Assembly: GCA_031414595.1 (NCBI GenBank)
Contig: JANNVX010000031.1
Coordinates: 1 to 64,000 of the forward strand
Reading direction: 5' to 3'
From: Deinococcales bacterium
GTDB lineage: Bacteria > Deinococcota > Deinococci > Deinococcales > JAAFIG01
Length of the DNA: 64,000 nucleotides
Positions 5,883-27,537 of this stretch are shown here, one piece after another (the first letter of the stretch is position 1; every line of letters begins with the position of its first letter). Below the pieces are notes generated by a model. That model saw nothing but the letters and a program-made list of their open reading frames with translations. It had not been told where the DNA came from and did no database searches. The translations under genes and the position numbers were made by a program.

Positions 5883-5985
5883 AGGCGACAAGGCAAAGGC
5901 GAAAGCGCGAGTAGCCCGCGAGGTGCTATCCCACGAGCAAGAAGGCGAAAGGTTAAACCTTTTGCCCTTTGCCTGTCGCCTTTCA
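5883..5985. repeat. Heptamer repeat hairpin carrying a nested 39-nt insert (5906-5944)
   Basis: aaggcaa/aggcgaa run and its inverse run; the insert matches 27394-27432 and 12013-12051. Confidence 0.85.
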
Positions 5986-5992
5986 ACTTCTC

Positions 5993-7069
5993 TCATAATC
6001 CCTCGAGTACCGCGTCAGCAAGGCGTTTGGCTGCCCCTGCTGGTGTGTTTTTCCGCACGATTTCCCGCCAATTAGCAAGGCGTGTCGTGTCAAAGCATGA
6101 CAGCATACCGCTAACCAGCTTGCCGTCAAGACCCGAGACCTCTTGTTCTAAGTCTGACTCGAGGATACACAAACCCGCGCCTCTGAGTTCTAAACTTTGG
6201 GCATTTTTGACTTGATGGTTTTCGGCACTGCTTGGCAAGGGAATCAGTGCCAAAGGCACACCATGAAAGGCAGCATCGGCAATGGTACTCATACCGGCTC
6301 GGGTGATGGCAAAGTCTATGGCAGAAAAGGCAGCGCTACCATCCACAAATTCGGCACAGTGATACCACGGCAAGTGTTTAACCTTTGGCATGACTTCCTC
6401 GAGTCTGCCACGCCCAGTTTGATGCAGCACTTGGGCGTTTTTTTCAGTTAAAACACGCTCGAGAAGCGGTGGCAAAAGCGCGTTCAAACGCATACTGCCT
6501 TGCGAACCACCCATGACTAGCACTGTAAATTTTTCTGGCTCGAGACCAAAAATACTTCTTGCCTCGAGACGCGGTACGCTTTTTTCACGCACTGGCATTC
6601 CCACCACAACCGTCTTGACGTTCTTTAAGTGTGTCTGTGTGGCGGCATCGGCTAAAGCAATAATTCTGGCTCGAGACGCAAAAAAACGTGTCACCAAACC
6701 TGGAAAAGCATTGGCTTCGTGCATCGCTAACGGTATACCCGATAAAAACGCTCCCGCCATACCTTGCAGACTGGCAAAACCACCAAAACCAACCACTAGA
6801 TTTGGCTTAAAGCGTCGTACCACCGTAAAAGCATCAAAGACACCAAGCAGGGCATTAAACAGTGCTATAGGATTTGGATTTGAACGATCCAATTTACCAG
6901 AACGGACTCCAAAAAAAGTCAGATTCTCCTCGGTCGCCAGACGTTCTTCCATGCCGCCAGAAGCCCCAATTAAAGCACTTTCTATGCCTCGAGATTTCAG
7001 TTCTCGAGACAGGGCAATGGCTGGGAAAATATGTCCAGCCGTCCCACCCGCCGAGAGTAAAATTTTCAT
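5993..7069 (-). CDS. murG: Lipid I N-acetylglucosamine transferase
   Basis: GGTAGHIFPA, GGSQGS, HQTG, TRAGMST, HQVKNA. Confidence 0.98.
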   Translation of the reverse strand: MKILLSAGGTAGHIFPAIALSRELKSRGIESALIGASGGMEERLATEENLTFFGVRSGKLDRSNPNPIALFNALLGVFDAFTVVRRFKPNLVVGFGGFASLQGMAGAFLSGIPLAMHEANAFPGLVTRFFASRARIIALADAATQTHLKNVKTVVVGMPVREKSVPRLEARSIFGLEPEKFTVLVMGGSQGSMRLNALLPPLLERVLTEKNAQVLHQTGRGRLEEVMPKVKHLPWYHCAEFVDGSAAFSAIDFAITRAGMSTIADAAFHGVPLALIPLPSSAENHQVKNAQSLELRGAGLCILESDLEQEVSGLDGKLVSGMLSCFDTTRLANWREIVRKNTPAGAAKRLADAVLEGL

Positions 7070-7101
7070 GTAGCCCCTCGGAAGTCTGCTAGACTCTGAG
7101 A

Positions 7102-7329
7102 ATGCAATGGAATGTGACCGAACAGAGCGACCTGAATACCATGCTTGAAGCGATTAAACGCGGTGAGAACGTCATTCTGACCCAAAACGGCGAGGCTGTT
7201 GCCCAAGTGACCGCCTTGCCAAAACCCCAAAATACGATTCGGCTTGGCGTTTTCCCAAAAGAAATCAAATCGGACTTGCTTGAACCAACTGACCAAGAAA
7301 TGATTGATTCGTTTTACGGGAATAATTGA
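7102..7329 (+). CDS. Phd/YefM-family antitoxin
   Basis: MLEAIKRGENVILTQNGEAVAQV Phd-like pattern; leaderless (TAGACT 7090-7095); abuts the PIN gene. Confidence 0.85.
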   Translation: MQWNVTEQSDLNTMLEAIKRGENVILTQNGEAVAQVTALPKPQNTIRLGVFPKEIKSDLLEPTDQEMIDSFYGNN

Positions 7330-7725
7330 ATGCGTGTTTTGCTTGACACCCACACACTCGTTTGGGCAGTGATGCAGCCGAAACAATTGCCCATTAAAGT
7401 TCATCAAATTCTGAACGATACCAAGACCCAAAGTTTTTTTAGTTCGGTCAGTTTGTACGAAATCAGCCTGAAATACCATGCTGGAAAATGGGATGATGTG
7501 GCGGAACTTGCAATTGAAAAAAATAGCCTTGAAATACTCCGTGATTTCGGTGCGATTGAACTGCCAGTCTACTCGAGCCACACACGATTGGCTGGAGCTT
7601 TCCCTAGCAGCCACAAAGACCCTTTTGACCGTTTGCTGGCAGCCCAAGCCATGCTCGAGCAAATGACCTTGTTGAGTGCCGACCCCTTGATGGATGGCTT
7701 TGGGGTACAAAGGATTTGGAATTAA
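7330..7725 (+). CDS. vapC: PIN-domain VapC toxin
   Basis: LLDTHTLVW, SLYEI, HKDPFDRLLAAQA, LLSAD. Confidence 0.95.
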   Translation: MRVLLDTHTLVWAVMQPKQLPIKVHQILNDTKTQSFFSSVSLYEISLKYHAGKWDDVAELAIEKNSLEILRDFGAIELPVYSSHTRLAGAFPSSHKDPFDRLLAAQAMLEQMTLLSADPLMDGFGVQRIWN

Positions 7726-7727
7726 AG

Positions 7728-8870
7728 TCATTTAATCCCACTCTCGAGTAGAGCAATCCGAGGTTCTGGACGTGGCACGGCGCGTTTTTCGTATTTAACC
7801 AGCAGCGCATGAGCCGAGTGCATCCAGCCCATCACAATGGCGCAAGCAATCATGCTCGAGCCACCATCGGAGACAAAAGGTAAGGTCATACCCGTGTTTG
7901 GAAAACGCCCAACCGTCACGGCTAAGTTAATCATCGCTTGGGCAACCAATAAAAGCATTGCCCCACCACACAAAATACTGGCGGCATTGCGTTCGTCTGC
8001 GTCTATATGAACTGCCTTTGAGAGACGGTGCATCAGGTCTAGTCCAACCAATAAAATACAGGCAAAAGCAGCAAATATGGTGGTGATACCGATTAAACCA
8101 AGACTGTGCGCTACGGTAGAGGACACAAAATCATTGGTTTGGGCAAAGAGCTTAATTTTATCTTGGGCAGGACCTCGCCCCGGAATTCCACCGCGCTGAA
8201 TGATGCAACGCGCCAATTCAACTTGGGTTTTGTCACGCTTGGCACACATATCATCTGAACGGGTCACGGAGGTAAAGCCCTCTAACCGGTTTCCCACGTA
8301 CTTATTTTGTTGTAAGTAATAACCAATGAGAGGCGAAGCCATCAGTGCCGCCGTTATCGCAATACTGAGGATTCGTCCGATGGGGGCATTGGCAAGAAAC
8401 ATCACCCCTAAACCAAGTGCAAAAGTAAACACACCCGCCGAAGTGCTGGGCGCGAGTAAAATCAGGACACTGGTTGCCCCGAGTGCCAAAGCTGGAACCC
8501 AAAGCGCATAACGAGTTCCGCGCCGCGCAAAAAATGAAGCAAAATAGGCAATCAAAGCCACTTTTGCAAATTCAGAAGGTTGAAACTGAAAACCAAAGAC
8601 TGGAATCCAACGCCGTACCCCATTGATTTCACGTCCAAACAATAAAACCGCCACCAACGCCACCAAGCACAAGACCCAAGCGTACTTGCCAAGTTGTACC
8701 GAAGCCCCCGCCCGCATCTGCGAAACAACCAGCGTGACCGTAAAACCAATGGCAATAAACACCAAGCTCTCGGGGATATCGTTGACTGAAGCCGTCGCCA
8801 TGGCGAGTAAACCCAAGGCGAACAAGACCATCTGGGCGGAGAGGAGTAAAGGATTTAAGGGTTTTAGCAT
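7728..8870 (-). CDS. ftsW: SEDS protein FtsW
   Basis: NGVRRWI, FQPSEFAK, PNTGMTLPFVSDGGSS; multi-TM; dcw position. Confidence 0.93.
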   Translation of the reverse strand: MLKPLNPLLLSAQMVLFALGLLAMATASVNDIPESLVFIAIGFTVTLVVSQMRAGASVQLGKYAWVLCLVALVAVLLFGREINGVRRWIPVFGFQFQPSEFAKVALIAYFASFFARRGTRYALWVPALALGATSVLILLAPSTSAGVFTFALGLGVMFLANAPIGRILSIAITAALMASPLIGYYLQQNKYVGNRLEGFTSVTRSDDMCAKRDKTQVELARCIIQRGGIPGRGPAQDKIKLFAQTNDFVSSTVAHSLGLIGITTIFAAFACILLVGLDLMHRLSKAVHIDADERNAASILCGGAMLLLVAQAMINLAVTVGRFPNTGMTLPFVSDGGSSMIACAIVMGWMHSAHALLVKYEKRAVPRPEPRIALLESGIK

Positions 8871-8907
8871 GGGAGAACCTCGGGCGAAAAGCGACAAGGC
8901 AAGGGGG

Positions 8908-10209
8908 TCATGAAGTTGCCTCCTCGAGTGATTTGACGGCATCCCGAAAGGCTTGCCCTCGAGCTTTGTAGTTTTTGAATAAATCAAAACTTGTACCTAA
9001 CGGAGCTAAGACCACACTACCGCCTTTGGCTGCCTCGAGTCCGAGTTGTACGGCTTTTGGCATGACAGAATCTGTGGTTAGGGCAGTTAAATCAAGAATT
9101 CTGATGCCCGTGTGCTGCAAGGCTTTGGCGTACTCGAGACCAGATTCTCCAAAGGCAATCAAGACCGCTACTTTTTTCATTAACGGCTCGAGTTTTGGCA
9201 GTTCTGATTTATGTTCTTCTGGGGTGAGTTTATCGCGTCCACCGACAATCCAAGCAATTGGCGCTGGGGCATTCTCGAGGGCGCTTTGGACGGCTAAGAC
9301 CCGAGTAGCAATACTATCTTCGATAAAGCGCGTGTTTTGGATGGTCGCAATCGTTTCAAAACGCCCCCGTACACCCGGAAACTCGAGCAGCGCTGTTTGT
9401 AATTTTTCTAAATTTGCTGTCCGACCATGACGCTTTAAGTACGCCAGCACCGCCGCTACAGCCATACGTACATTTTGCGGATGCACGGTATTTGGAATTT
9501 CTTCTAAGGCGAGCAGTTGGCTCTCCTCTATTCGCACCGCCCCAGTTTCGGCAACTCGAGCAATCTGGGCTGGGGTTTTGGTTTCTAGGGCTAAGGATTC
9601 TGGAAGCACCAAGGTATCCGCCTCGGTTAAATTCTTGGCGATTTGCCATTTGGCAGCCTTGTATGCTTGTACCGAACCGTGGTCACGCACATGGTCTACT
9701 CCGATATTGGTGATGACTGCCACGTCTGGGCGGTAGGTGTGAATCCGTTCCAACTGAAAACTAGAAAGTTCCACCACGCAGACTTCGGCATCCAAGACCT
9801 CGAGAAGCGGCGGGTCAAAATTTCCACCAACTTGCGCCTTAAAACCCTGTGACTCAAGCAAATGGGCAATTAACAAAGTGGTGCTGCCTTTACCTGCTGT
9901 ACCAGTAATGCCAATACTTGAGAATGTGGCGGTTTGAAACGCCAATTCAACCTCGCCCCAGACCGGAATACCTACTGCCAGCGCCGTCTGCATATGCGGA
10001 TGACGCATCATCACCCCGGGCGCAGCAATCACCAAATCTATGCCCGTTAAATCAAACGACTCGAGTCTCGAGAACCCCAGTTCTAGGGCTTCGGGCGCTC
10101 CAAAAGGGTTTGACGAATCATCAAACCAAACTCCAGACCAACCGAGTTTAGCAAGGTGTTTAATCACACTCGAGCCACTGCGTCCGAGACCAAAAACAAG
10201 ACAATTCAT
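8908..10209 (-). CDS. murD: UDP-MurNAc-L-Ala--D-Glu ligase
   Basis: FGLGRSG, GITGTAGKGSTT, VELSSFQL, DSIAT, SFDLFKNYKARG. Confidence 0.97.
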   Translation of the reverse strand: MNCLVFGLGRSGSSVIKHLAKLGWSGVWFDDSSNPFGAPEALELGFSRLESFDLTGIDLVIAAPGVMMRHPHMQTALAVGIPVWGEVELAFQTATFSSIGITGTAGKGSTTLLIAHLLESQGFKAQVGGNFDPPLLEVLDAEVCVVELSSFQLERIHTYRPDVAVITNIGVDHVRDHGSVQAYKAAKWQIAKNLTEADTLVLPESLALETKTPAQIARVAETGAVRIEESQLLALEEIPNTVHPQNVRMAVAAVLAYLKRHGRTANLEKLQTALLEFPGVRGRFETIATIQNTRFIEDSIATRVLAVQSALENAPAPIAWIVGGRDKLTPEEHKSELPKLEPLMKKVAVLIAFGESGLEYAKALQHTGIRILDLTALTTDSVMPKAVQLGLEAAKGGSVVLAPLGTSFDLFKNYKARGQAFRDAVKSLEEATS

Positions 10210-11138
10210 GCTTTACCGCCAGTCATGATGCTCCAAGCAAGCATGGTAGCCACAGCAGTGATGGCTAAAAACCGAATCGTGACTTTGGTTTCTGCCCAAC
10301 CGAGTTTTTCAAAATGATGATGAATCGGAGTCATTAGAAAAAGGCGTTTGTCCACCCCATGAAATCGTTCATTGTAGCGCTTAGAAAGGACTTGCAGCAC
10401 TACACTGACAATCGCCATCACAGGGAAAATCGCAGCAATCGGTAGAACCCATGTCCAACCTTGGGTGATATAAACCCCAGCCACAATCCCACCAAGGGCA
10501 TGAGAACCCGCGTCGCCCATGAAAATCTGGGCTTTTGGGGCGTTAAACCATAAGTAGCCAAGCAAAGCCGCAATCGTGAAACCCGCCATTGGCGAAGAAA
10601 CCACCAATGGAATCAAAATAATCGCCACTGTACCCGCGCAAAGTCCATCCAAGCCATCAGAGAAATTGACTGCATTGGCAGTACCAACCGCCACAAAGCA
10701 GTAAAAAGCAGCATCCAACCAAAAACTACCCAGTAAAGAAATTTCACCCGCCACAACATAGGCAAAAATACTCGAGACAAGAATCTGGGCTGGGAATTTA
10801 ATTCGCGCTGGTAAATCACCTCGAGTCGCCGCGCCAAGCATCCGCGCCCGAACAATACCGATGTCGTCCCATGCGCCAATTAAGTACATTCCAAAGGATA
10901 AACCCAGCACTGCCCAGCCTTTGGTGTCGGACATGCCCGTCAAACCAATCAAAACCAGCCAGACTAAAAAGATAGTCAGGGTGAACGGGATTCCGCCCAT
11001 CGTCGGTGTGCCGTCCTTAATCAGATGGGTGGCGGGTCCATCGCGGCGTACCGTCTGCCCCCAACCGCGTTCCTTAGCAAAGCGCAGAAAAATCCCCACA
11101 GCAAACCATGAGATTAAAGCAGTCAGCACAAACCTCAC
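10206..11138 (-). CDS. mraY: Phospho-MurNAc-pentapeptide transferase
   Basis: KDGTPTMGG, NAVNFSDGLDGL, FMGDAGS, PIHHHFE. Confidence 0.98.
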   Translation of the reverse strand: MRFVLTALISWFAVGIFLRFAKERGWGQTVRRDGPATHLIKDGTPTMGGIPFTLTIFLVWLVLIGLTGMSDTKGWAVLGLSFGMYLIGAWDDIGIVRARMLGAATRGDLPARIKFPAQILVSSIFAYVVAGEISLLGSFWLDAAFYCFVAVGTANAVNFSDGLDGLCAGTVAIILIPLVVSSPMAGFTIAALLGYLWFNAPKAQIFMGDAGSHALGGIVAGVYITQGWTWVLPIAAIFPVMAIVSVVLQVLSKRYNERFHGVDKRLFLMTPIHHHFEKLGWAETKVTIRFLAITAVATMLAWSIMTGGKA

Positions 11139-12217
11139 CGCGTCACCTCACAAGCTCGAGTTAAAAGTGGGGCAAAGGTTCGGGCATCAAAAAACATCAC
11201 ACTCGAGCCAATTGCCACTGCCAGTGTATCACCACCAACTGCAATTTTTGAACCAGCGCTTGGCAAAGAAATAGTACGAAAAGCATTCAGGTCATTACGG
11301 CTAATTCGTACCTCAGATTTCTCGAGAACAAAGGTATAGTCGGCATTTCGCACCGCCGTACCTTTGACCGCCACAAACGAATTATTTTCTGACAGCAATG
11401 AATACTGGGCAGAATCAAGCTCTTTAACTTGAGTGGTTTGCCCATTTTGCAATACAAACACTTCTTTACCAACCAAAAAATAGGTGCTGTTTGGCAATTC
11501 AAGCACATCTTGTGGCGGAATAGAAAAACGGGTCACTCGAGAACCTAAGAAATTAAAAACATCACCCTCTGAAGTTAAAATGTGCCGTGCCGATAACCGT
11601 GTGGGTTGCCCCGAAACAGCCACACTTTTTGGCAGACCCACAGCTGTTTGCACCAAACCGGCTCGAGGTAAAGCAAACCACCATGTGTTATCCAGCCACA
11701 CTGCACTGCTGACCCGAGTTGGCGCGGACAACCATTCATGCCCAGACTGCCCACGAATCGCGGCTCGAGAGAAAAGTGCTACTGATGTGGCATTCTGCGC
11801 CACACAAACCGTGTCGCCATTGGGATTGACCACCAAACTGACCACAGCACTCGAAGCCGCAACTGCACCAGAACTTGGGGTGACTCGAGTCGGAGCGCAA
11901 GCTGTCAGAAATACAATAGGTAAAAGCCAAAGCAACAAAGATTTTCGTAGAGGCGCAACGAAAATCTTAAGGAATTGTCCGAAAATAAAATCTATGAATC
12001 GTTGGGCGAGGCTATCTTGACCATAAACGCGCACCTTACGGGCATGGTCGCATGCCTCGCCCCTACGAAAAAAATCTCGTGCTAGACCGTAGGGGTTAGG
12101 CATGCCTAACCCTCTTGCAGTCAATGATGATTCAAATCCAAATTGGGATGTTATTTCAGGACAGTTCCGATGGGTGAATTGGTGGGCAAAGCCCACCCTA
12201 CGCTCAAAGCCGTTCAC
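11135..12217 (-). CDS. Hypothetical lipoprotein (beta-rich); start uncertain, 5' part reads in frame through a REP and a MITE
   Basis: Lipobox-like RKSLLLWLLPIVFLTA-C. GTG at 12217 has GGAGG and overlaps the murF end; the frame is open through 11971-12168. Confidence 0.6.
   Translation of the reverse strand: MNGFERRVGFAHQFTHRNCPEITSQFGFESSLTARGLGMPNPYGLARDFFRRGEACDHARKVRVYGQDSLAQRFIDFIFGQFLKIFVAPLRKSLLLWLLPIVFLTACAPTRVTPSSGAVAASSAVVSLVVNPNGDTVCVAQNATSVALFSRAAIRGQSGHEWLSAPTRVSSAVWLDNTWWFALPRAGLVQTAVGLPKSVAVSGQPTRLSARHILTSEGDVFNFLGSRVTRFSIPPQDVLELPNSTYFLVGKEVFVLQNGQTTQVKELDSAQYSLLSENNSFVAVKGTAVRNADYTFVLEKSEVRISRNDLNAFRTISLPSAGSKIAVGGDTLAVAIGSSVMFFDARTFAPLLTRACEVTR
11971..12168. mobile_element. 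MITE-like element (198 bp) with terminal inverted repeats and an internal GTAG-REP doublet
   Basis: Ends GGAATTGTCCGAAAATAA ... TTATTTCAGGACAGTTCC. Inside are an interrupted GGGCGAGGC/ATGCCTCGCCCCTAC and GTAGGGGTTAGGCATGCCTAACCC. Confidence 0.8.
12181..12201 (-). repeat. Solo GTAG-family REP
   Basis: GTAG-GGTGGGC-TTT-GCCCACC hairpin on the minus strand just after the murF stop. Confidence 0.8.
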
Positions 12218-13475
12218 GCAGCACCTCCACAATTTGCTCGAGTTGCACAAATCTCGAGCCTTTGACAAGGATGGTGTCGCCATTTTTAATATCGGGCAAT
12301 ACTCGGGTTTTGGCTTCTTCGGTTGTGGCATACCAAAGTGCGTCTGTACCATTATCAAGCGCAGCTTGGGCAAGCGCGTCGCCGTGTTCGCCAATGGCAA
12401 TCACCAATTGGGCGTGTTTAGCAGCCGTGATTCCGATTTCGCTGTGGTACTGGCGGCTGTGTGTGCCGAGTTCGCGCATATGTCCAAGAATCGCCACTTT
12501 GCGTCCAGTAAACCGTGCCAGTGTCTCGAGACTAGCGGTCACAGACAATGGATTGGCGTTGTAAGCATCGTCTATCAAAGTAATTTGTCCACGTTCGATG
12601 CGGAGTCTTCCCCCTGGAATTTGGCTGTTCTCGAGTCGGGTTTTGGCGGTCTCGAGCGGGATGTTGTAGCGCTGGGCTAGGGCAAGTGCCAAGACTGCAC
12701 TTTCGGCAATTTGGGTACTTGGGGTCTCGAGGGTAATCTGCTGCCCGTGATAGAGAAAGCTAACGGTTTCGGCAGTGGCGTGTAGGTTCGTGGCGTGGTG
12801 GGTGCAGGTCTCGAGAAAACCATAACTCGGGGTGTTCGGGTAACGGTGGGCGGTGTTGCCCGCGACCATGCTATGAGGAGCTTCTAGGATGCGTCCTTTT
12901 TCAAAAGCAACGGTGTCTACATCGCCAAAAAATTCGGTGTGGGCAGCCCCGACCGAGGTAATAATGCCGATGTTTGGCGCAATCAGTGCCATCAGTTCAT
13001 CCATTTCACCGATGTGGTCTATGCCCATTTCAATCACATGGGTGCTACCCGCTTTTACGTTTGAAAGTAAATAACAGGCTAAGTAATTGAGGGTATTGAG
13101 GTTTCCGGGCGTACATGGCACATCCAAAGCACTCGAGACAAGGCTTTTAGCGGTGGTTTTTCCGGCTGAACCCGTGATGCCGATTAACTCGGCTTGGGTG
13201 GTGTCGCGGTGCAGTCTTGCCCAGTGGCGGAGCGCCATAACTGCGTCTGGAACACGCACCGCCCTTGGCACATCCAGATTGGTCAGGATAAACGGTGCGC
13301 CAGCTTCAATTGCCGCCTCAATAAAATCGTTGCCATGCCGCGTTGCGCCTTGCAGTGCCGCGAACGCCGTGTGTTCGTTGCACTCCGAAGTCATAAAAGT
13401 GATGCCCTTAGCGGCTCGAGCATCACTGTCGATAGTGGCTTGGAGTTGTTGGGCATAAAGAAAAGGGTCAATCAT
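12204..13475 (-). CDS. murF: UDP-MurNAc-tripeptide--D-Ala-D-Ala ligase
   Basis: GITGSAGKTTAK, GNLN, EMG, DDAYNANP, LVKGSR. Confidence 0.97.
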   Translation of the reverse strand: MIDPFLYAQQLQATIDSDARAAKGITFMTSECNEHTAFAALQGATRHGNDFIEAAIEAGAPFILTNLDVPRAVRVPDAVMALRHWARLHRDTTQAELIGITGSAGKTTAKSLVSSALDVPCTPGNLNTLNYLACYLLSNVKAGSTHVIEMGIDHIGEMDELMALIAPNIGIITSVGAAHTEFFGDVDTVAFEKGRILEAPHSMVAGNTAHRYPNTPSYGFLETCTHHATNLHATAETVSFLYHGQQITLETPSTQIAESAVLALALAQRYNIPLETAKTRLENSQIPGGRLRIERGQITLIDDAYNANPLSVTASLETLARFTGRKVAILGHMRELGTHSRQYHSEIGITAAKHAQLVIAIGEHGDALAQAALDNGTDALWYATTEEAKTRVLPDIKNGDTILVKGSRFVQLEQIVEVLRERL

Positions 13476-14973: not shown

Positions 14974-14991
14974 GAATACCTAGGAGAGAGA

Positions 14992-19120: not shown

Positions 19121-20485
19121 ATGAAATCAAAAGTTTGGATCATCAGTGCAGGTTTAGCCACAAGTGCCGCCATTGCCGCCCTAGCCACAGGAGCATTTGC
19201 CCAAAGTCCAGTCACTGTGACGATTGCCACGGTTAATAATTCGGATATGGTCACGATGGAAAGCCTGACCAATGTCTTTGAAGCCGCTAACCCCGGCATC
19301 AAACTAAAATGGAATGTGCTGCCAGAAAACGAACTGCGCCAAAAAGTCACCACCGATATTGCCACGGGTGCTGGCAGCTATGATGTTGCCACCATCGGGA
19401 CTTACGAAGTGCCAATCTGGGCTAAAAACGGTTGGTTAAACTCGATGGATGCGCTTTTTGACAAGAACACCAGCATCAAAGCCAGTTACGACCTTGCCGA
19501 CCTCTTAACTCCTGTTCGCCTTGGCTTGTCATACAACAAAAACTTATATGCACTGCCGTTCTACGCCGAATCGAGCATGACTTTTTACAATAAAGCCGCT
19601 TTTGCGGCTGCCAAACTGACCATGCCCGTCAAACCAACATGGGCGCAAATTCAAACTTTTGCAGCTAAACTCCATAAACCACAAAATGGTTTCTTTGGTA
19701 TTTGCTTGCGTGGCTTACCCGGTTGGGGCGAGAACATGGCAGTCTTTAGCACCATGGTCAACACCTTTGGCGGACGTTGGTTTGATACAAGCTGGAACGC
19801 CACCATCAACTCACCCGCTTGGAATACGGCTTTAACCTTTTATGTCAATCTGCAAAAGCGCTACGGCGCACCAGGCGCAACAGGCAACGGCTTTACCGAA
19901 AACCTGACCTACATGAGCCAAAATAAATGCGGTATGTGGATAGATGCCACCGTCGCCGCAGGATTCTTAAAAGACCCACGCCAATCAAAAATTGTGGATA
20001 CTGTCGGTTTTGCCAACGCCCCAACTGGACCCGGCACACCAAAAGGCAGCAACTGGCTCTGGTCGTGGTCTTTGGCTATTCCAAAATCGAGCAAAGTTGC
20101 CGATGCCGCCTTTAAGTTCATCACTTGGGCAACCAGCAAAGAATACATTGCACTGGTTGCTAAAACCAACGGCACATGGGCAAGTGTACCCCCCGGAACT
20201 CGAGCCAGCACCTACGCCAACCCAGAGTACAAAAAAGCGGCTGGGGACTTTGCTGGTATTACACTCGATTCAATTAACCGCGCTGACCCAACCGATGCCA
20301 CCAAAGACCCTGTTCCATACGTTGGTGTGCAATTTGTGGGAATCCCAGAATTCCAAGCCCTTGGCACACAAGTTGGACAGTACGTGGCTGGCGCATTGGC
20401 TGGACAATACAGCGTTGCCCAAGCCCTGAAACTGGGTCAAACAGCCGCCGAAAAAGTTGCCAAAGAAGGCGGCTACAAGAAGTAG
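19121..20485 (+). CDS. Polyol (sorbitol/mannitol, SmoE-like) ABC substrate-binding protein
   Basis: Signal peptide, TIATVNN, ENELRQKVTTDIAT, CLRGLPGWGEN, WIDATVAA, VQFVGIPEFQ. Confidence 0.9.
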   Translation: MKSKVWIISAGLATSAAIAALATGAFAQSPVTVTIATVNNSDMVTMESLTNVFEAANPGIKLKWNVLPENELRQKVTTDIATGAGSYDVATIGTYEVPIWAKNGWLNSMDALFDKNTSIKASYDLADLLTPVRLGLSYNKNLYALPFYAESSMTFYNKAAFAAAKLTMPVKPTWAQIQTFAAKLHKPQNGFFGICLRGLPGWGENMAVFSTMVNTFGGRWFDTSWNATINSPAWNTALTFYVNLQKRYGAPGATGNGFTENLTYMSQNKCGMWIDATVAAGFLKDPRQSKIVDTVGFANAPTGPGTPKGSNWLWSWSLAIPKSSKVADAAFKFITWATSKEYIALVAKTNGTWASVPPGTRASTYANPEYKKAAGDFAGITLDSINRADPTDATKDPVPYVGVQFVGIPEFQALGTQVGQYVAGALAGQYSVAQALKLGQTAAEKVAKEGGYKK

Positions 20486-20517
20486 CTCGATCAACCTCCA
20501 CTCGAGCCTCATTTATC

Positions 20518-20547
20518 GTGAGCAGGTGGCAACACCATCTGCTCACC
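20518..20547 (+). other. Intercistronic stem-loop after the SBP gene
   Basis: GTGAGCAGGTGG ... CCATCTGCTCAC, no U tail. Confidence 0.6.
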
Positions 20548-20596
20548 AATTATACAAAAACAGAAATCCAAATTTGTTCAATATCCTAATCAGAGG

Positions 20597-21523
20597 TTGA
20601 TGATGACATTTCAAGAACGCTCATTAAAAAAGAATGCGAACCGTGGGCGTACTTCAAGATTACCTGCACTATGGCTGCTTGCGCCCGCTTTGGGGTACTT
20701 AATTATTACGACCCAAGTACCGTTTATCATGACGATTTACTACAGTTTATTTCGCTATAGCTTGGTAGACCCGTTTAAGCGCCCTTTTATTGGACTCGAG
20801 AATTACCTAACACTATTTACCGACCCACTTTCGATTCCGATTTTAATCAATACTTTGGTGCTGGTGCTAAGCGTAATTTTCTTGACCGTGATTTTTGGGG
20901 CAGCCTTGGCATTGCTGTTTAATCGTCCATTTTTTGGGCGCAATGTGGCTCGTACCCTACTGATTGGTCCTTTTTTTATCATGCCAGTCATCACCGCTTT
21001 AATCTGGAAAAATTCGCTGCTTAACCCTGTTTTTGGTTTGTTTGGGATGGCTTCAAGGGCTTTGGGGTTTGAAGCAGTTGACTGGTTAGAACGCTACCCA
21101 ATGCTTTCGATTATCATGATGGTCACGTGGGAATGGACTCCGTTTGCACTGCTGATTTTACTGACCAGTTTGCAGTCTTTGCCGACTGATCAACTCGAGG
21201 CGGCGCGTTTGGATGGCGCAAGTCAATTGCAAGAATTTTGGTATATTGTTCTGCCGCACTGGACAAGGGCATTTGAAGTCGTGGTGCTGCTCGAGGCGAT
21301 TTTTATTCTACAAATTTATGGTGAAATTTATATTGCCACCAGTGGCGGACCCGGGCTGGCAACCACCAATTTACCGTACTTTATTTTCCAAAAAGCCTTT
21401 GGTGAGTACAGTATCGGCATGGCATCGGCGGCTGGGGTCATCGCCGTGATTATCGCCAATATCATCACGGCTTTATTTTTGCGTCTGGTCAATCGCAATG
21501 TCGTTACGGAGGTTAAATCATGA
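20597..21523 (+). CDS. Carbohydrate ABC permease
   Basis: FIGLENY, EAARLDGA motif, SGGPG. Confidence 0.93.
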   Translation: MMMTFQERSLKKNANRGRTSRLPALWLLAPALGYLIITTQVPFIMTIYYSLFRYSLVDPFKRPFIGLENYLTLFTDPLSIPILINTLVLVLSVIFLTVIFGAALALLFNRPFFGRNVARTLLIGPFFIMPVITALIWKNSLLNPVFGLFGMASRALGFEAVDWLERYPMLSIIMMVTWEWTPFALLILLTSLQSLPTDQLEAARLDGASQLQEFWYIVLPHWTRAFEVVVLLEAIFILQIYGEIYIATSGGPGLATTNLPYFIFQKAFGEYSIGMASAAGVIAVIIANIITALFLRLVNRNVVTEVKS

Positions 21524-22359
21524 TGGCTGCAAAAAAACCAAGTCAACTCTGGCGAACCACCAAAAACATTGCATTGGGAGGGCTGGCGTGGCTAATTGCT
21601 TTGGCATTTTTCTTTCCGATTGCGTGGATGATTAGCAGTGGTTTCAAAACCGAAAATGAAGCCTTTGCGACTCCACCAGTCATTATATTTCAACCGATAT
21701 TTGATAATTTTTCGACAGCACTGGCAAAATACGCCCCAGCCCTGACCAATTCTTTAATCGCGGCGCTCGGTTCAACGCTTCTGTCTTTTTTGTTGGGCTT
21801 ACCCGCCGCGTTCTCGATGGTTTTTTACCCTGATGCACGCAGCCGCAGCACCTTGTTATGGATTGTTTCGACCAAAATGATGCCGCCCGTTGGCGTGATT
21901 GTACCGCTTTACCTGATTTTTAAGGACTTACAATTGCTTGATAATATTTTTGGGCTAACCCTGATGTACACCACCATGAATTTACCGTTGGTCATCTGGA
22001 TGATGCACTCGTATTTGTCTGAAATCCCGATGGAAATTCTCGAGGCAGCGCGGGTGGATGGCGCGAGTTTACAACACGAATTCCTCAGAATCGCCATGCC
22101 ATTGGCTGCCCCCGGAATTGCTTCTACAGCGCTTCTGTGCATTATTTTTGCGTGGAACGAAGCCTTTTTTGCCCTGAACTTAACCAATGTTGATGCCGCG
22201 CCACTTTCGGTCTACATCAGTGGGTTTAAGACCACCCAAGGCTTATTCTGGGCTGGATTATCGGCTGCTGCGACACTGGTTATTCTGCCCGTGATGGCAT
22301 TTGGTTGGTCGGCACAACGTCAATTGGTGCAAGGGCTAACGATGGGAGCAGTGAAATAA
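21520..22359 (+). CDS. Carbohydrate ABC permease
   Basis: EAARVDGA, FAWNE, QGLTMGAVK. Confidence 0.93.
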   Translation: MMAAKKPSQLWRTTKNIALGGLAWLIALAFFFPIAWMISSGFKTENEAFATPPVIIFQPIFDNFSTALAKYAPALTNSLIAALGSTLLSFLLGLPAAFSMVFYPDARSRSTLLWIVSTKMMPPVGVIVPLYLIFKDLQLLDNIFGLTLMYTTMNLPLVIWMMHSYLSEIPMEILEAARVDGASLQHEFLRIAMPLAAPGIASTALLCIIFAWNEAFFALNLTNVDAAPLSVYISGFKTTQGLFWAGLSAAATLVILPVMAFGWSAQRQLVQGLTMGAVK

Positions 22360-23372
22360 TGCAAGCTGCGGTTATATTAAGAGCCAATCACCTCGAGATT
22401 CAAGAAGTTCCTGAGCCAACTGTTAAGCCAGATGAAGTTCGAGTTCGTGTGGCAGCCACGGGAGTCTGCGGCACGGATTTGCACCTCTATGGCGGGCATT
22501 TTGGTGCGGTTTTCCCCTTAATCGCTGGACACGAAATTAGCGGCATAGTAGACCAAGTTGGCTCGAGTGTAGTTTCTGTCAAAGAAGGCGACGCGGTAGC
22601 CCTTGACCCGAATATTTCTTGTGGACACTGCCACCATTGCCGCCGAGGAATGCAACACCACTGCGAGAATTTTGCTGCCCTTGGGGTGACAAGGGGCGGA
22701 GGATTTGCCGAGTATGTGACCGCGCCGCAAACCAATGTTCACCCGATTGGCACACTCGACCTCGAGACGGCAGCCTTTGCCGAACCCTTGGGCTGCATCG
22801 CATGGGGTATCAAACGCCTTCAACCTGAAATTGGTAGCAAAGCCCTGTTATTTGGGGCGGGTCCAATTGGGATTCTCCTCATGCAAGCCTTACTGATTTC
22901 TGGATGCAGCCAAGTGACGGTCATCGAACCCAACTTAGAACGCCGTGTGGTTGCTAAAGCTCTGGGCGCAACCACAGTTCTCGAGCCAAACCCCGACTTA
23001 AAAACCCAATTGTACGACCTCGAGCCACATGGTTTTGATGTTGTCACCGAAGCCACAGGCATTGGCGCAGTCATCAGCCAACTGCCACAATACGCCACCC
23101 AAGGCGGCAAAATTTTGTACTACGGCGTAGCCCCAGACGATTTAACCGTACAGATTAGCCCTTACGAAGTTTTTCGCCGTGACTTGACGATTTTAGGTAG
23201 TTTTTCTTTGCATGGCACATTACCGATTGCGCTGCGTTGGTTAGCCAGTGGACTTATCAAAGTCAAGCCACTGATTACCCACCGTTTACCGATTAAGGAC
23301 TTGCAACTCGCCCTCGAGTACAAGAATCAAGTTGGCTTGAACGGCTCGCAAAAAACCCTGATTATCCCGTAA
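22359..23372 (+). CDS. Zinc-dependent alcohol/polyol dehydrogenase
   Basis: GVCGTDLH, GHE, CGHCHHC, GAGPIG; the ATG overlaps the upstream TAA. Confidence 0.92.
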   Translation: MQAAVILRANHLEIQEVPEPTVKPDEVRVRVAATGVCGTDLHLYGGHFGAVFPLIAGHEISGIVDQVGSSVVSVKEGDAVALDPNISCGHCHHCRRGMQHHCENFAALGVTRGGGFAEYVTAPQTNVHPIGTLDLETAAFAEPLGCIAWGIKRLQPEIGSKALLFGAGPIGILLMQALLISGCSQVTVIEPNLERRVVAKALGATTVLEPNPDLKTQLYDLEPHGFDVVTEATGIGAVISQLPQYATQGGKILYYGVAPDDLTVQISPYEVFRRDLTILGSFSLHGTLPIALRWLASGLIKVKPLITHRLPIKDLQLALEYKNQVGLNGSQKTLIIP

Positions 23373-23391
23373 AAATACTTTAAGGAGTTGT

Positions 23392-24138
23392 ATGAATCTT
23401 TCTCTCGAGCAACAAATTGTTATTGTCACTGGTGGTGGACGTGGGATTGGACTCGAGATTTCTCGGGCGATGCGGACGGCTGGGGCGCATGTGGTGATTG
23501 CTGAAACAAATGCCGTGATTGGCTTAGCCGCCGCGCTCGAGTTACAGGGTGATTTTATTCAGACCGATGTGACCGACTCGAGTAGTGTTCGGGCAATGAT
23601 TGAAGCGGTAGTGGCTAAGCATGGGCGGATTGACTGCTTGGTCAATAATGCGGGGATTTGTCGCAACACGCCGTCCGAGGATGTAACCGATGAAGAATGG
23701 CGTTTAGTGATGAGCATAGATTTGGATGGTGTTTTTTATGGTTGCCGTGAAGTGGCTCAAGTGATGCTCAAACAAGGGGCTGGCACGATTATCAATATCG
23801 GTTCGATGTCGGGGATAATCTCGAATCGTCCGCAACCGCAGTCGGCATACAACACCGCCAAAGCTGGGGTGATTCACCTCACAAAATCTTTGGCTGGAGA
23901 ATGGGCAAGCCGTGGTATTCGGGTCAACTGCATCAGTCCGGGGTATATTGGTACACCGATGACCAAACTTGGACTCGAGACCCCCGAATGGCGCGAGACT
24001 TGGCTCTCGAGTACCCCCATGGGACGGCTGGGTGAACCAACCGAGGTGGCAAGCGTGGCGGTTTTTCTTGCCAGTTCCGCCTCGAGTTTTATGACTGGTT
24101 CTAATGTTGTGGTGGACGGAGGCTATACCTCATGGTGA
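23392..24138 (+). CDS. SDR oxidoreductase (polyol dehydrogenase-like)
   Basis: TGGGRGIG, NNAG, YNTAK, VDGGY. Confidence 0.93.
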   Translation: MNLSLEQQIVIVTGGGRGIGLEISRAMRTAGAHVVIAETNAVIGLAAALELQGDFIQTDVTDSSSVRAMIEAVVAKHGRIDCLVNNAGICRNTPSEDVTDEEWRLVMSIDLDGVFYGCREVAQVMLKQGAGTIINIGSMSGIISNRPQPQSAYNTAKAGVIHLTKSLAGEWASRGIRVNCISPGYIGTPMTKLGLETPEWRETWLSSTPMGRLGEPTEVASVAVFLASSASSFMTGSNVVVDGGYTSW

Positions 24139-25193
24139 TGCAAACGGCGGTGCTGCATGGCATTCGGGATATTCGACTCGAGAACCGCGAAATTCCACAA
24201 CCAAAAGCCAACGAAGTGCTGGTTAAAATTGCTCGGGTTGGGATTTGTGGTTCGGACTTACATTATTATACCGACCTGCATATTGGGCAGTATGTGGTCA
24301 AAGCCCCGCTTATTCTGGGGCATGAATCGGCTGGGGTGATTACAGGGGTTGGTTCAGGTGTCACCAACCTAGAAATCGGCGACCGCGTGAGTCTCGAGCC
24401 GGGCATGACTTGCGGCACTTGTTATCATTGTAAACGTGGACGGTATAACCTCTGCCCCGATGTAATTTTTATGGCTACTCCGCCGGTGGATGGGGCTTTT
24501 GCCGAGTATGTCACTTGGCGCTCAGACTTTGTGTTCAAAATTCCCGATTCTGTCAGTTTAGACGCGGCTGCTCTACTCGAGCCGCTCTCTGTGGCAGTCT
24601 GGGCGGTGCAACGCGCCAGTATTGGCATGGGTGCAAGCGTTGCAATTTTTGGCGGTGGCACTATTGGTTGTATGACCGTCCAAGCAGCCAAAGCAGCCGG
24701 GGCGACCACAATTATTGTTGTTGACCTCGAGCCATTTCGCCTAGAATTTGCGGCTTCACTCGGTGCGACCCACACGATTAACGCCCGTGCAGGCAGTGTT
24801 CTCGAGCAGATTCGAGCAATCACCGAACCCTTAAATGGTTTAACTGGCTCGAGTGCTGGGGTGGATGCGGCTTTTGAGACGGCTGGAGCGCTGATTACCT
24901 GCCGTCAAACCATCGAAGCGGTGCGTTCTGGTGGCGTGGCGGTACTGGTCGGTTTACCACCAGACCCGATGGTCAGCTTGGATATTGTGGCGGCGGCTTC
25001 CAGAGAAGTAGACATTCGTGGTCAGTTCAGGTACGCCAATTGTTACCCTGCAGCATTGGCACTGGTCTCGACTGGGCGGGTCAATTTAGACAAAATGATC
25101 ACCCAACGTTACGGGCTTAAAGACACCAAAGCGGCGCTTGAGTTTGCCGACAAAGAAAAAAATGCTTCCTTAAAAGTTATGATTGAGTTATAA
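24132..25193 (+). CDS. Sorbitol/xylitol dehydrogenase (MDR)
   Basis: GICGSDLHYY, LGHE, YNLCPD, FMATPPVDG, FRYAN. Confidence 0.9.
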   Translation: MVMQTAVLHGIRDIRLENREIPQPKANEVLVKIARVGICGSDLHYYTDLHIGQYVVKAPLILGHESAGVITGVGSGVTNLEIGDRVSLEPGMTCGTCYHCKRGRYNLCPDVIFMATPPVDGAFAEYVTWRSDFVFKIPDSVSLDAAALLEPLSVAVWAVQRASIGMGASVAIFGGGTIGCMTVQAAKAAGATTIIVVDLEPFRLEFAASLGATHTINARAGSVLEQIRAITEPLNGLTGSSAGVDAAFETAGALITCRQTIEAVRSGGVAVLVGLPPDPMVSLDIVAAASREVDIRGQFRYANCYPAALALVSTGRVNLDKMITQRYGLKDTKAALEFADKEKNASLKVMIEL

Positions 25194-25199
25194 TCACCC

Positions 25200-25499
25200 A
25201 TGTTGGCGGTCAAACCAGAGCAATTCAGAGGCGTTGCCAAGGCGTTACGCGCCCATTACGGGCAACGCTACGGGATGCTGGTCTTGCTCGAGACCAGACA
25301 AAAGGGTTTACTCGAGTGCTTATTGGTACTCGAAGGCGAAGTCAATACCATCCGTGAAATTCTGCGGGTTGAACCTGTGGCACGGCTTCATTCAAGTGTT
25401 CAGGTCGAACTGGCAATCCTGCCAATCTCGAGGCATAACTGGGATGCCGCCCTTGAACCCGAGGTTTGGGAAGCCCACTGGACTGGTATCAGGCTCTAA
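25200..25499 (+). CDS. Small protein resembling a degenerate minimal nucleotidyltransferase
   Basis: Size and LRAHYGQR...LLVL...GIRL pattern fit MNT, but the GS/DxD motif is missing. Confidence 0.45.
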   Translation: MLAVKPEQFRGVAKALRAHYGQRYGMLVLLETRQKGLLECLLVLEGEVNTIREILRVEPVARLHSSVQVELAILPISRHNWDAALEPEVWEAHWTGIRL

Positions 25500-25517
25500 A
25501 TGGTGTATACTAAACTC

Positions 25518-25565
25518 ATGAAGTCCCTGCTTTCGTGTTGTTGCCCTCGAGTCCGAGTGGCGTAA
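25518..25565 (+). CDS. Leaderless leader peptide MKSLLSCCCPRVRVA
   Basis: TATACT 25506-25511, ATG 25518, three consecutive Cys codons, directly upstream of cysS. Confidence 0.85.
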   Translation: MKSLLSCCCPRVRVA

Positions 25566-25584
25566 TTTTGTGTTGTATTGCGTT

Positions 25585-25616
25585 CGCTCGAGTGTAGATT
25601 CTCGGGCGTTTTTTAT
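25585..25616 (+). terminator. Attenuator terminator of the cysS leader
   Basis: CGCTCGAG-tgtagatt-CTCGGGCG followed by TTTTTTAT. Confidence 0.8.
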
Positions 25617-25651
25617 TTTAGGAGTCCTATGGACACCAAACTAGGAGTTGT

Positions 25652-27100
25652 ATGATTACTGTTTTTAATTCCCTAACCCGCAGCAAAGAAGAATTTGTTC
25701 CCAGTTCGCCGCATCATATTGGCATGTACCTCTGTGGTCCGACAGTCTATTCAGAAAGCCACCTTGGTCATGGGCGGACAGGCGTTTCATTTGATGTGAT
25801 CAGGCGTTGGTTTGAATACCGTGGTTTTGCAGTGCGCTTTGTTTCTAATGTCACCGATGTTGGACATATCACTTCAGAAACCGATGATGACGGTGTGGAC
25901 AGAATTGGACAGCGTGCCAAACTCGAGCAACTCGAGCCGATGGAAATTGCCGATAAGTACATGTGGGGCTACTTTCAGGACTTAGCAGCGCTGGGGGTTA
26001 AAAAACCAAGTATCACCCCAAGAGCCACTGGGCATATTTTAGAGCAAATCGAAATGGTGCAACGTTTAATAGCTAAAGGTCATGCTTACGAACAGGGTGG
26101 CAGTGTTTACTTTCGGGTTAGGAGTTTTGCTAAGTATGGGCATTTAAGTGGTAAGAAAATAGATGACTTAGAGCATGGTACACGCGAAGATGTCCGCGAG
26201 GACAAAGAAGACCCACTCGATTTTGCCTTGTGGAAATTTGCCGAACCCGAACACATCATGCGTTGGAATTCACCGTGGGGACAAGGTTTTCCGGGCTGGC
26301 ACATCGAATGCTCGGCAATGGCGCTCAAATACCTAGGCGAGAATTTTGATATTCATGCTGGTGGCTTAGACTTGCAATTTCCGCATCACGAAGCCGAAAT
26401 TGCCCAAGCTGAAGGGGCTGGCTACCAATTTGCCAAGTATTGGCTTCATGGCAATATGTTGACCATTGGCGGTGAGAAAATGAGCAAATCTAAAGGCAAT
26501 TTTATCACCCTCGCCGATTTCTACACCCAGAAAGCCGAACCGATGGTATTGCGCCTTGCTTATGTGCAGAGTCATTACCGTAGCATTGCCGAAATTGGTG
26601 ATGACACCATCGAAGGGGCAAAAACAGCACTCTCGAGACTGCGTGAAGTTAAACGCGAACTCGAGCGGCGGATACCGGAAGCCAGTGCTGGCACGACCCC
26701 AAGTTTAGAAACCGCCATCACTCGAGCCACCAACGAATTTGAAGCTGCGCTGGACGACGATTTCAACACCCCCAAAGGTTTGGCGGCGGTCTTTGACCTC
26801 ACCCGAGAAGTCAATGCGGCACTGACGGCTGGAGCAGGGAAAACCAGTCTCGAGAACGCCCTGAATTTTTACAATACTTTTGTTGGCGGGGTGCTGGGTT
26901 TGTACCACTCAGGGCAAGCCTCGGCTCGAGATGATGCCCAATTACTCGAGGGGCTAATGCAAATTGCCATAGAAGCTCGCGGGGTCTACCGTCAGAACCG
27001 AGATTTTAGCCGTTCAGATGGGTTGCGTGAGCGCCTAAAAAGCCTTGGTGTGGCACTCGAGGATACGGCAGTTGGCACACGTTGGAAACTCGAGGGTTGA
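25652..27100 (+). CDS. cysS: Cysteine--tRNA ligase
   Basis: [34 protein letters not shown]. Confidence 0.99.
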
Positions 27101-27145
27101 GGCTAAAACTGTTTTGGTAATCCAGCTTGCTTCAAAACACCATTA

Positions 27146-27336
27146 GGAACTGTCCAAGAATAACTTCCCGATTTCAATTAAACCAAGAACATACAATTGG
27201 TCACAGGGCGGACACGGGGGTCCGCCCCTACCTGACGTATTTTTATGATTTTTGTAGGGACAGACCCCTGTGTCTGTCCTGCTAGGAAATGATATTTCGT
27301 CGTTTCCAATTTGGGAAGTTATTTCAGGACAAATCC
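27146..27336. mobile_element. MITE-like element (191 bp) with a GTAG-REP doublet
   Basis: TIRs GGAACTGTCCAAGAATAACTTCC / GGAAGTTATTTCAGGACAAATCC; REPs at 27206-27231 and 27254-27279; closely similar inverted copy at 52228-52418. Confidence 0.9.
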
Positions 27337-27376
27337 TAAGGAAATAATTTAGCGACAATAGATGCAAATGGGATGG

Positions 27377-27537
27377 TTACGAACTCCCCCCGCCTTCTTG
27401 CTCACAAGACAGCACCTTGCGGGCTGTTCGCGCTTCGGCGACCCCCTCGAAAAAGAGGGGGTTACAGGTCGAGGTCTTGGTTTTTGAACCCCCTCTTTTT
27501 CGAGGGGTCAGCGCTCCGCGCTGGGGGGAGTTCGTAA
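27377..27537. repeat. Large palindromic repeat with a nested 39-nt insert (27394-27432)
   Basis: Outer arms TTACGAACTCCCCCC / GGGGGGAGTTCGTAA; inner arms CCCCTCGAAAAAGAGGGGGTT / AACCCCCTCTTTTTCGAGGGG. Confidence 0.85.

Follow-up and report, generated by a model that had tools for sequence, protein, structure and literature searches.

A window of 64,000 nucleotides (nt) of Deinococcales DNA, the whole stretch that was analysed (assembly GCA_031414595.1, contig JANNVX010000031.1, positions 1 to 64,000 of the forward strand), carries four copies of a hairpin element of 38-40 nt. In this study, we found that these copies belong to a real family of very small, self-nesting, insertion-polymorphic hairpin elements that has been recently active in uncultured Deinococcales. 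The source genome, designated as G000, is a draft metagenome-assembled genome (MAG) of a Deinococcales bacterium, not of a cyanobacterium, with 4.49 Mb and 47% G+C, and the window is its contig C31. A preliminary description of the window had reported three related 39-mers at 5906-5944 (minus), 12013-12051 (plus) and 27394-27432 (plus), which were confirmed letter for letter. The pattern shared by the copies, TCTTG..C-N8-GCACCT..CGGGC, matched the window four times, against 0.02 matches expected from 100 dinucleotide-preserving shuffles, none of which reached four. The additional match, at 36911-36949 (minus), had been overlooked.

Copies in the window and their host repeats

The four copies and the three hosts are listed below, where a vertical bar or a caret in a motif marks a point of insertion.

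5905..5944, minus: A-type copy; the earlier frame was 5906-5944, and both junctions read C|T in the frame 5905-5943.
12013..12051, plus: B-type copy with the outer stem GACCAT/ATGGTC; covariance-model score of 61.3 bits.
27394..27433, plus: A-type copy; the earlier frame was 27394-27432, and the C|T frame is 27395-27433.
36911..36949, minus: fourth copy, of the GACCCT..TGGGTC subfamily; covariance-model score of 63.1 bits.
5884..5980: Host 1, inverted runs of GGCGAAA/GGCAAAG-type heptamers that make a long palindrome around TTAAA, broken by the copy at 5905-5944.
12004..12066: Host 2, a repetitive extragenic palindrome (REP), GGGCGAGGC^ATGCCTCGCCC, whose right side has CCCCTAC, the complement of the GTAG tag.
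27377..27537: Host 3, a palindromic element of about 122 nt resembling a miniature inverted-repeat transposable element (MITE), with 15-nt terminal inverted repeats TTACGAACTCCCCCC / GGGGGGAGTTCGTAA and an A-type copy.

The copy at 5905..5944 lies in one arm of the heptamer-built palindrome, and the heptamer content of the orthologous spacers varies across five genomes. The B-type copy was inserted 1 nt off the centre of the GTAG-tagged REP palindrome, and an uninterrupted variant of this REP is found at 12089-12112, 23 nt downstream of Host 2. At least three families of GTAG-tagged REP palindromes are present in the source genome: GTAGGGGCGAGGCATGCCTCGCCC; GTAGGGACAGAC..GTCTGTCC, with about 70 copies; and GTAGGGGCGACC-CTTGT-GGTCGCCC.

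The copy at 27394..27433 occupies the hairpin loop CGCC-TTC-GGCG of the MITE-like element. This element has several genomic paralogues with or without inserts, some of which hold A-type or B-type units in the same loop. The paralogue at C109:82910 has a B-type unit there, and another paralogue is on C64, where a composite identical to the window copy and its host is present at C64:21816-21854. The fourth copy directly follows a terminator-like hairpin with its T-run and precedes a pyrR-like gene, which starts at about 36889 (minus). Window positions 36950-37040 (minus) contain a conserved leader, CCCGAGAGGCACAAAAGGAGG, ahead of this hairpin and its T-run, and the leader and hairpin together look like a PyrR attenuator.

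Empty and filled insertion sites

The claim that removal of 39 nt restores the host was borne out by uninterrupted paralogous junctions for two of the hosts and by a heptamer run that is uninterrupted in the congener G006. The junction ccccccgc|cttcggcgacc is uninterrupted six times elsewhere in the source genome, and the REP junction gggcgaggc|atgcctcgccc is uninterrupted 5-22 times, depending on the frame of the 22-mer. For a further host, the paralogous empty site gacacaggggt|ctgtccctaca, 62 uninterrupted and 8 filled occurrences were counted.

Empty and filled states were also found at six orthologous loci and on one metagenome contig. The heptamer spacer of the first copy has an A-type unit in G000 and G001 and another subfamily, in its own heptamer run, in G003; G006 has heptamers only, and G005 has neither heptamers nor unit. 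In the pyrR leader of the fourth copy, G007 is empty, G000 has the GACCCT form and G001 has the GACCAT (B-type) form. The G001 unit itself carries an A-type copy at GCAC^CT, which is missing in G000. The interdomain linker of metH, the methionine synthase gene (G000:C72:44655-48475), contains the unit in G000, G001, G003 and G006, and G007 is empty at the site GTCTGTCC|TGAC. This linker has been colonised by REPs as well as by the element; the lengths in six congeners are 341, 305, 317, 299, 251 and 251, and the frame is always kept. On C105, two sites are both empty in G001, and at one of them G007 holds a different subfamily. A contig from another study (run X6) has a 39-nt unit in the loop of the REP GGGCGAAC-C|TTGT-GTTCGCCC, where G000 is empty; this contig is weak on its own because its depth is only 3.2. 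None of the 15 sequencing-run joints listed, out of 45 and all from assembled contigs, skipped 38-40 nt.

The empty and filled alleles at orthologous sites and the paralogous empty sites support the mobility that had been proposed. In addition, one orthologous site holds different subfamilies in different genomes in four cases, which is more readily explained by hot spots that are targeted again and again than by gradual divergence of a resident copy. The preliminary description had named three grounds on which the element should be given up, namely a lack of further copies, of empty sites or of significance against shuffled controls. Further copies, empty sites and significance were all found, so none of these grounds holds.

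These alleles also bear on a reading in which the unit is a motif useful to the host, such as a protein-binding site, a terminator or a stabiliser of mRNA, which is kept by selection and is mobile only as a by-product of the spread of larger repeats. Some copies do hitch-hike, since a single type of REP, that of GGACAGAC, hosts 8-9 of them and identical composites were found twice, and one copy abuts the attenuator-like terminator. However, many copies have a context of their own, stand in either orientation to the genes, lie in coding linkers or are nested up to three deep, and different subfamilies at one orthologous site fit repeated targeting, not a conserved local function. We consider this reading extremely improbable.

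The unit is a single hairpin

Compared with their paralogous empty hosts in the source genome, every A-type copy is an insert of 39 nt, and the other subfamilies are inserts of 38, 39 or 40 nt. The length was previously said to be a multiple of 3, which is true of the A-type and does not extend to the other subfamilies. Frame preservation matters only for the few genic copies, because most copies are intergenic.

The general form of the unit is 5'-T(T/G)TCTTG, a covarying stem of 6 bp, an A-rich bulge, an invariant GC(A)CC-TNNC-GGGC stem-loop, the returning stem and CGC-3'. The A-type is written as CT-TCTTGCTC-(G/A)(T/C)(G/A)(G/A)(G/A)-A(T/C)(A/G)-GCACC-TNNC-GGGC-(T/C)(A/G)(C/T)-TCGCG. The B-type and its relatives are written as NN-TCTTG, then one of GACCAT, GACCAC, GACCCT, GAACCC, GATCCC or GCCC.., then AAAC/AAAG..-GCACC-TNNC-GGGC, the matching arm and CGC.

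For the B-type, 49 gapless copies from several MAG species were aligned, and 14 of 63 copies (40-41 nt) were dropped. The structure consists of the 6-bp outer stem and the inner stem GC(A)CC/GGGC with its TNNC loop, and 94.9% of the cells are paired. Four pairs change on both sides (8-36, 9-35, 11-33 and 12-32), covering 46 cells, and none of 500 shuffles reached the score. Controls with slid partners gave at most 47% pairing, and RNAalifold independently predicted the same helices. For the A-type, 26 copies were aligned and three 40-nt variants were left out. Pairing reached 99.1%, with covariation at 11-34, 12-33 and 18-32, and again none of 500 shuffles reached the score. A 2x2 mismatch is conserved in the A-type stem, and a bulged A is common to both types. 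The covariation in both types supports the view of a very small structured element; the specific compensatory pair suggested earlier (TAGC/GCTA versus CAGC/GCTG, columns 17-33) proved wrong, since column 33 pairs with column 12 instead.

The alignments have 17-24 invariant columns, including the 5' tail TCTTG and the 3' tail CGC. The inner stem and the bulged A never vary; they are therefore uninformative on pairing but point to sequence-specific recognition. The loop length varies (TTC, TGC, TGACGAC) among otherwise standard copies. These results demonstrated that the unit forms a single hairpin under selection.

Copy number and distribution

The source genome has 67 matches to the pattern with at most one mismatch, and a reversed control pattern gave none. 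A covariance-model scan, as proposed in the preliminary description, was performed with a model built from 49 copies, and 150 of 3343 candidates in the source genome were scored. At least 104 matches were obtained at E<=0.01. They include split matches of 70-78 nt, which are copies interrupted by another copy.

The pattern was found in all 18 other genomes of the same family, which represent five genera, with 1-165 matches each. In 42 genomes of four sister families it gave 0-2 matches, none above the control level, and it was not above noise in 11 genomes of the family holding the genus g7. A scan of one genome per prokaryotic species gave at least 118 stretches with the pattern. Among the 80 listed, 64 came from MAGs that bear the label Deinococcales, Deinococcota or Deinococcaceae, with several stretches in many of these MAGs, and the remaining 16 were single matches in unrelated phyla. 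These results indicate that the element is confined to one family of uncultured Deinococcales, with about 100 copies per genome.

An Rfam search found no matching family and gave microRNA noise only (E 0.28-0.92). Carriage by phages was rejected, as IMG/VR gave five pattern matches, none with the stem or the CGC end.

Junctions, targets and orientation

Junctions were investigated in 152 copies with distinct flanks from the source genome and from loci fetched from other MAGs. Only exact-core copies were used, so that at least 30 variants found by the covariance model alone are excluded, and one chance match from outside the Deinococcales may be included. Of the 152, 127 can be read with C|T at the left junction, 118 at the right junction and 100 at both. 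Among A-type copies (n=45), the 2 nt before TCTTG are CT in 31, TT in 7 and GT in 5, and the base after ...TCGCGC is T in 42. For the remaining 107 copies, of other types, C stands ahead of the first T 81 times, and ...CGC is followed by T 76 times, by C 14 times, by A 12 times and by G 5 times.

A 2-nt CT target duplication was tried as an explanation and rejected. Among the A-type copies, 14 lack CT as the dinucleotide on the left; all of them have it on the right, and left equals right in none. The unambiguous pairs of empty and filled sites have no repeat at the insertion site. Comparison of the copies on C101 and C106 with their empty paralogues showed that the unit must include the 3' C. 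The unit is thus best written 5'-T...C-3', usually between C and T, and its insertion is precise and makes no target duplication. The copies had previously been described as following a GC dinucleotide. This holds for the three copies then known; over the family, it is C that precedes the first T of the unit. The insertion frame is ambiguous by 1-3 nt.

The targets are rich in hairpins. Units have entered REP apices, heptamer runs and loops, both those of other hairpins (CGCC|TTCGGCG and C|TTGT, for example) and that of the element itself (CACC|TNNC), as well as C|T steps adjoining an existing copy. The proposal that the element targets other repeats was upheld and extended, with REP hairpins, heptamer runs, the MITE-like palindrome and its own copies as hosts. 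A GTAG tag is present within 32 nt of 39 of the 107 non-A copies, on the same strand in 14 and on the opposite strand in 25.

Orientation among neighbouring copies is strict. Nesting in the loop CACC|TNNC of a host unit was direct in 22 cases and inverse in none. Direct tandems account for 12 of the 152 copies, which abut another copy, and nesting reaches a depth of three. A neighbouring core within 45 nt was inverted for 1 of the 152 copies and direct for 13. In the tandems of G010, the cores are spaced by 39 nt for the A-type and by 38 nt for the GATCC-type. An array like those of clustered regularly interspaced short palindromic repeats (CRISPR) was ruled out, as the tandem units have no spacers.

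These junctions were also weighed against a process with no dedicated enzyme, in which template switching or gene conversion between hairpins at stalled forks would use microhomology of 1-3 nt. The hairpins and tandem heptamers that serve as targets are known slippage-prone contexts, the junctions have an ambiguity of just this size, and loop-length variants (TTC, TGC, TGACGAC) occur at the hot spot. However, the unit ends are identical at dozens of targets that have no relation to each other, among them the metH linker and sites outside repeats. The microhomology is often one base or zero, as at the GGGGT|CTGTCC host. The invariant loop and tails across five genera point to sequence-specific recognition instead. 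Such a process is highly improbable as the source of the family.

The copies are mostly intergenic. Stop-to-stop frames of at least 150 amino acids (aa) span 22 of 74 pattern matches, mostly as read-through of repeats, and two of the 74 are false matches within genes. The real in-frame copies are in the metH linker, in the C-terminal tail of nuoC and in a broken IS110-like transposase gene. Of the units between co-directional genes, 16 share the strand of the genes and 26 do not, as judged from crude calls of open reading frames (ORFs).

Candidate transposase genes

The preliminary description had supposed that the mobilising enzyme is not encoded in the window. In agreement with this, whole-genome searches for the Y1 transposase and reverse transcriptase families gave nothing on C31. 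Elsewhere in the source genome we found two Y1 genes that resemble REP-associated tyrosine transposases (RAYTs) and no classical IS200 TnpA. The genes beside two clusters of the element (C1 and C41) are housekeeping genes, with no candidate mobility gene among them.

Paralogue 1 (C98:106767-107468, in the region G000:C98:105267-108968) encodes 234 aa with a low-complexity insert. Its neighbours, which belong to a type I restriction-modification operon, are an hsdM-like gene, with an overlap of 20 nt, and an hsdS-like gene at a distance of 33 nt, and no repeats are found beside it. The protein matches Pfam Y1_Tnp with 39 bits and has the motifs HVH and RNYYE; motifs of this type are predicted to be catalytic by analogy only. 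Paralogue 2 (G000:C109:4189-4776) is 44% identical to paralogue 1 and has the motif HIH. A search of solved structures with the two proteins gave no significant match, the best being IS200-like transposases at E=1 and E=2.3.

A GTAG-tagged REP with an inserted unit is found about 50 nt upstream of paralogue 2 in G003 and G006, and not in G000 or G004. The C-terminal motif of paralogue 2 is SFHD in G000 and G004, compared to SFYD in G006, and the genomes with H also have no upstream REP with the element. The SFHD-type paralogue may be a decaying copy. RAYT-like genes are present in 16 of 18 genomes of the family.

The source genome also encodes a reverse transcriptase of 620 aa that contains a group II intron maturase domain (G000:C82:67380-69242), directly downstream of a 278-aa ORF without a Pfam match. 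A second reverse transcriptase gene is broken.

Proposed mechanism and alternatives

A study of the E. coli enzyme TnpAREP reports that it requires a folded REP and that its cuts in single-stranded DNA fall at C|T to either side of an inverted REP hairpin (PMC3333891). According to the same study, C|T steps in a region of more than 400 nt around the bound REP are also cut, and 5'-phosphotyrosine links are formed (PMC3333891). According to parts of another report, CT or CA is used by other RAYTs (PMC8266576).

We give an even chance to the reading that the element is a non-autonomous, single-strand "peel-and-paste" hairpin unit, which is moved in trans by a REP-type transposase of the Y1/HUH (histidine-hydrophobic-histidine) class. 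This reading was chosen because the absence of duplication, the strict strand specificity, the one-hairpin ends and the hairpin-adjacent C|T match the documented action of Y1/HUH enzymes on single-stranded DNA. Every step beyond the junction pattern is one that we infer. One strand of the unit would fold as single-stranded DNA. A RAYT/TnpAREP-type Y1/HUH tyrosine transposase, supplied in trans, would cut at C|T on both sides of the hairpin. The transposase would seal the donor, and the unit would become a small circle or a covalent intermediate. The unit would then be pasted into another C|T that is exposed as a single strand near a hairpin bound by the enzyme or by a partner molecule. The element would be a parasite of the genome's own GTAG-REP/RAYT system.

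A bolder form of this mechanism is offered tentatively, as possible though doubtful. Here, the element would be a minimal single-hairpin transposon of single-stranded DNA, 38-40 nt in length, and a hyper-parasite of the REP/RAYT system through the C|T cutting of a domesticated Y1/HUH enzyme; it would be excised as a tiny circle and re-enter at REP loops, heptamer arrays and its own loop. If this is true, the element would be among the smallest mobile DNAs with exactly defined ends, and micro-repeats of cyanobacteria and other phyla that resemble the small dispersed repeats (SDRs) of Nostoc may move likewise.

Several results weigh against movement by a RAYT-like enzyme. At the junctions, 52 of the 152 copies have no C|T reading at both ends, the junctions at GGGGT|CTGTCC, the host with the best documentation, are T|G and C|C, and the target at site 1 of C105 is T|T. 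Furthermore, the 152 copies are not independent events because many share host repeat families. The strand of the copies showed no clear bias relative to local GC skew (16/14/12/16, p=0.45), with a mean absolute skew of only 0.014. In G013, the sole closed genome, the strands are 6+/1- and 3+/4- in the two replichores, with few copies and an origin guessed from dnaA.

Other such results concern the candidate genes. Paralogue 1 scored 62.9 bits against the NCBIfam RAYT model, whose cut-off is 80, and both proteins were below the cut-off in the genome search (36 and 34 bits). Paralogue 2 has the C-terminal motif SSFHD where paralogue 1 has RNYYE. RAYT-like genes are also present in 8 of 42 sister-family genomes without the element. 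G005, which is 84% complete in 800 contigs, has 56 pattern matches and no RAYT-like match by protein or by NCBIfam model. Copy number does not track the number of RAYT genes, with 11 matches and at least 4 loci in G013 and 95 matches and 1 locus in G010. The element itself has no GTAG (or CGTC) tag and forms direct singles and tandems, not inverted REP pairs. The link to the enzyme is drawn from the junction signature and from analogy.

These points leave room for another DNA enzyme, such as a nuclease-ligase, a recombinase or a topoisomerase-like protein, that would recognise the GCACC-TNNC-GGGC stem-loop with its TCTTG/CGC tails and have C|T as its own specificity. It would account for an element without a GTAG tag, for RAYT-like genes that do not track the element across families and were not found in G005, and for most conserved parts (the 17-24 invariant columns) that are unlike the REP consensus in the portions available of PMC3333891 and PMC3733652. 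However, the housekeeping neighbours of the C1 and C41 clusters offer no candidate gene, and the lack of duplication, strict strand specificity and hairpin-adjacent C|T are the documented outcome of Y1/HUH activity. We consider a different DNA enzyme unlikely.

The unit might also spread through an RNA copy that is reverse-transcribed and then inserted, a route that Elhai et al. are said to have favoured for the Nostoc SDRs. The hairpin folds equally well as RNA, a group-II-intron-type reverse transcriptase is encoded on C82 and the genome has the broken second one, and one or two variable nucleotides stand ahead of TCTTG. However, the units showed no preference for the sense strand in the crude ORF calls (16 on the gene strand and 26 opposite), and no Rfam family matches. 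The C|T junctions, the direct-only nesting and the exact 38/39-nt tandem arrays would remain unexplained by this route, which we regard as very unlikely.

Relationship to known repeats

The comparison of the element with the small repeats of Nostoc made in the preliminary description was supported by its behaviour. In 2008, Elhai et al. reportedly described SDR1-8 of Nostoc punctiforme as repeats of 21-27 nt that are nested, found in heptamers and folded into compensatory hairpins. As is reported for these repeats, the element is very small, dispersed and non-coding, has a compensatory hairpin and is confined to one coherent lineage. It also inserts precisely into tandem heptamers, other small repeats and its own copies, as the SDRs reportedly do. 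The element differs in its length (38-40 nt, against the 21-27 nt reported) and in its phylum, Deinococcota, and it is likened to SDR1-8 by description and not by sequence. In addition, its ends and targets follow a C|T rule, and nesting in its own loop is strictly direct. Among the cyanobacteria examined in a paper that cites the SDR work, no SDR-like repeat was found outside the Nostocaceae, as far as the available part of that paper states.

The element resembles REPs and the REP doublets called REPINs (PMC3333891, PMC8266576, PMC3116915, PMC3733652) as an imperfect palindrome of 20-40 nt in high copy number, mostly intergenic and sometimes in frame within genes. The source genome also has RAYT-like genes and GTAG-tagged REPs. 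The enzyme of the REP system cuts single-stranded DNA at C|T beside a hairpin, and the junction counts of the element would fit such processing. In contrast to REPs and REPINs, the element has no GTAG/CGTC tag (its tails are TTCTT and GC), is single or in direct tandem and not in inverted doublets, shows clean single-unit empty and filled alleles and self-nesting, and has no clear REPtron arrangement of its own. Since its length is not that of the SDRs and it lacks both the GTAG tag and the inverted pairs of REPs, the element is a member of neither class as defined, although it works like both.

As in the IS200/IS605 family (IS608, ISDra2) and its miniature derivatives, insertion of the element is strand-specific and makes no duplication, hairpins define the ends, and the target would be read in single-stranded form. 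It differs in having one hairpin in 38-40 nt, not separate left and right end hairpins, and in having no tetra- or pentanucleotide target; no target is longer than N|T (mostly C|T). A full-length autonomous partner with the same ends was sought and rejected, as genuine left and right halves were never more than 105 nt apart in the draft source genome, where a partner broken by contig ends is possible. A classical MITE was rejected for lack of a target-site duplication, with left equal to right in 0 of the 14 informative A-type copies.

In Deinococcus radiodurans, the accessible part of one report describes mosaic-type small noncoding repeats (SNRs) of at least nine types, none of them in D. 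geothermalis (PMC1978522). The element is likewise a noncoding repeat in the same bacterial order; it is distinct from these mosaic repeats, and no relationship is indicated. A literature search found no such element described in Deinococcota, a provisional result as subscription papers were largely outside its coverage, and excerpts of a 2013 survey of tagged REPs (PMC3733652) have no mention of Deinococcota. Provisionally, the element is a variant of the REP and Nostoc-SDR kind that is so far undescribed in Deinococcota.

Evidence for the mobility of REPs is mostly statistical, and the spread of REPs and Nostoc-type repeats has never been directly shown. The present family offers clean empty and filled alleles, exact ends, a simple T...C junction rule, a hot spot in its own loop and only two candidate Y1 genes. 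The C|T junction rule makes the mechanism testable with oligonucleotides of 40-80 nt. The family also means that elements of this kind exist in Deinococcota, re-target the same hairpins repeatedly and are tolerated in frame in essential genes such as metH.

In this last respect, the copies in the metH linker and the nuoC tail resemble Rickettsia palindromic elements and in-ORF REPs, which are small palindromes in frame in essential genes according to parts of PMC3733652. In contrast to the Rickettsia elements, genic copies are a small minority here, and sequence and size differ. The IS110-like transposase gene (G000:C42:2483-3458) is split into two overlapping frames; one A-type unit lies in frame, and another is just upstream of the start.

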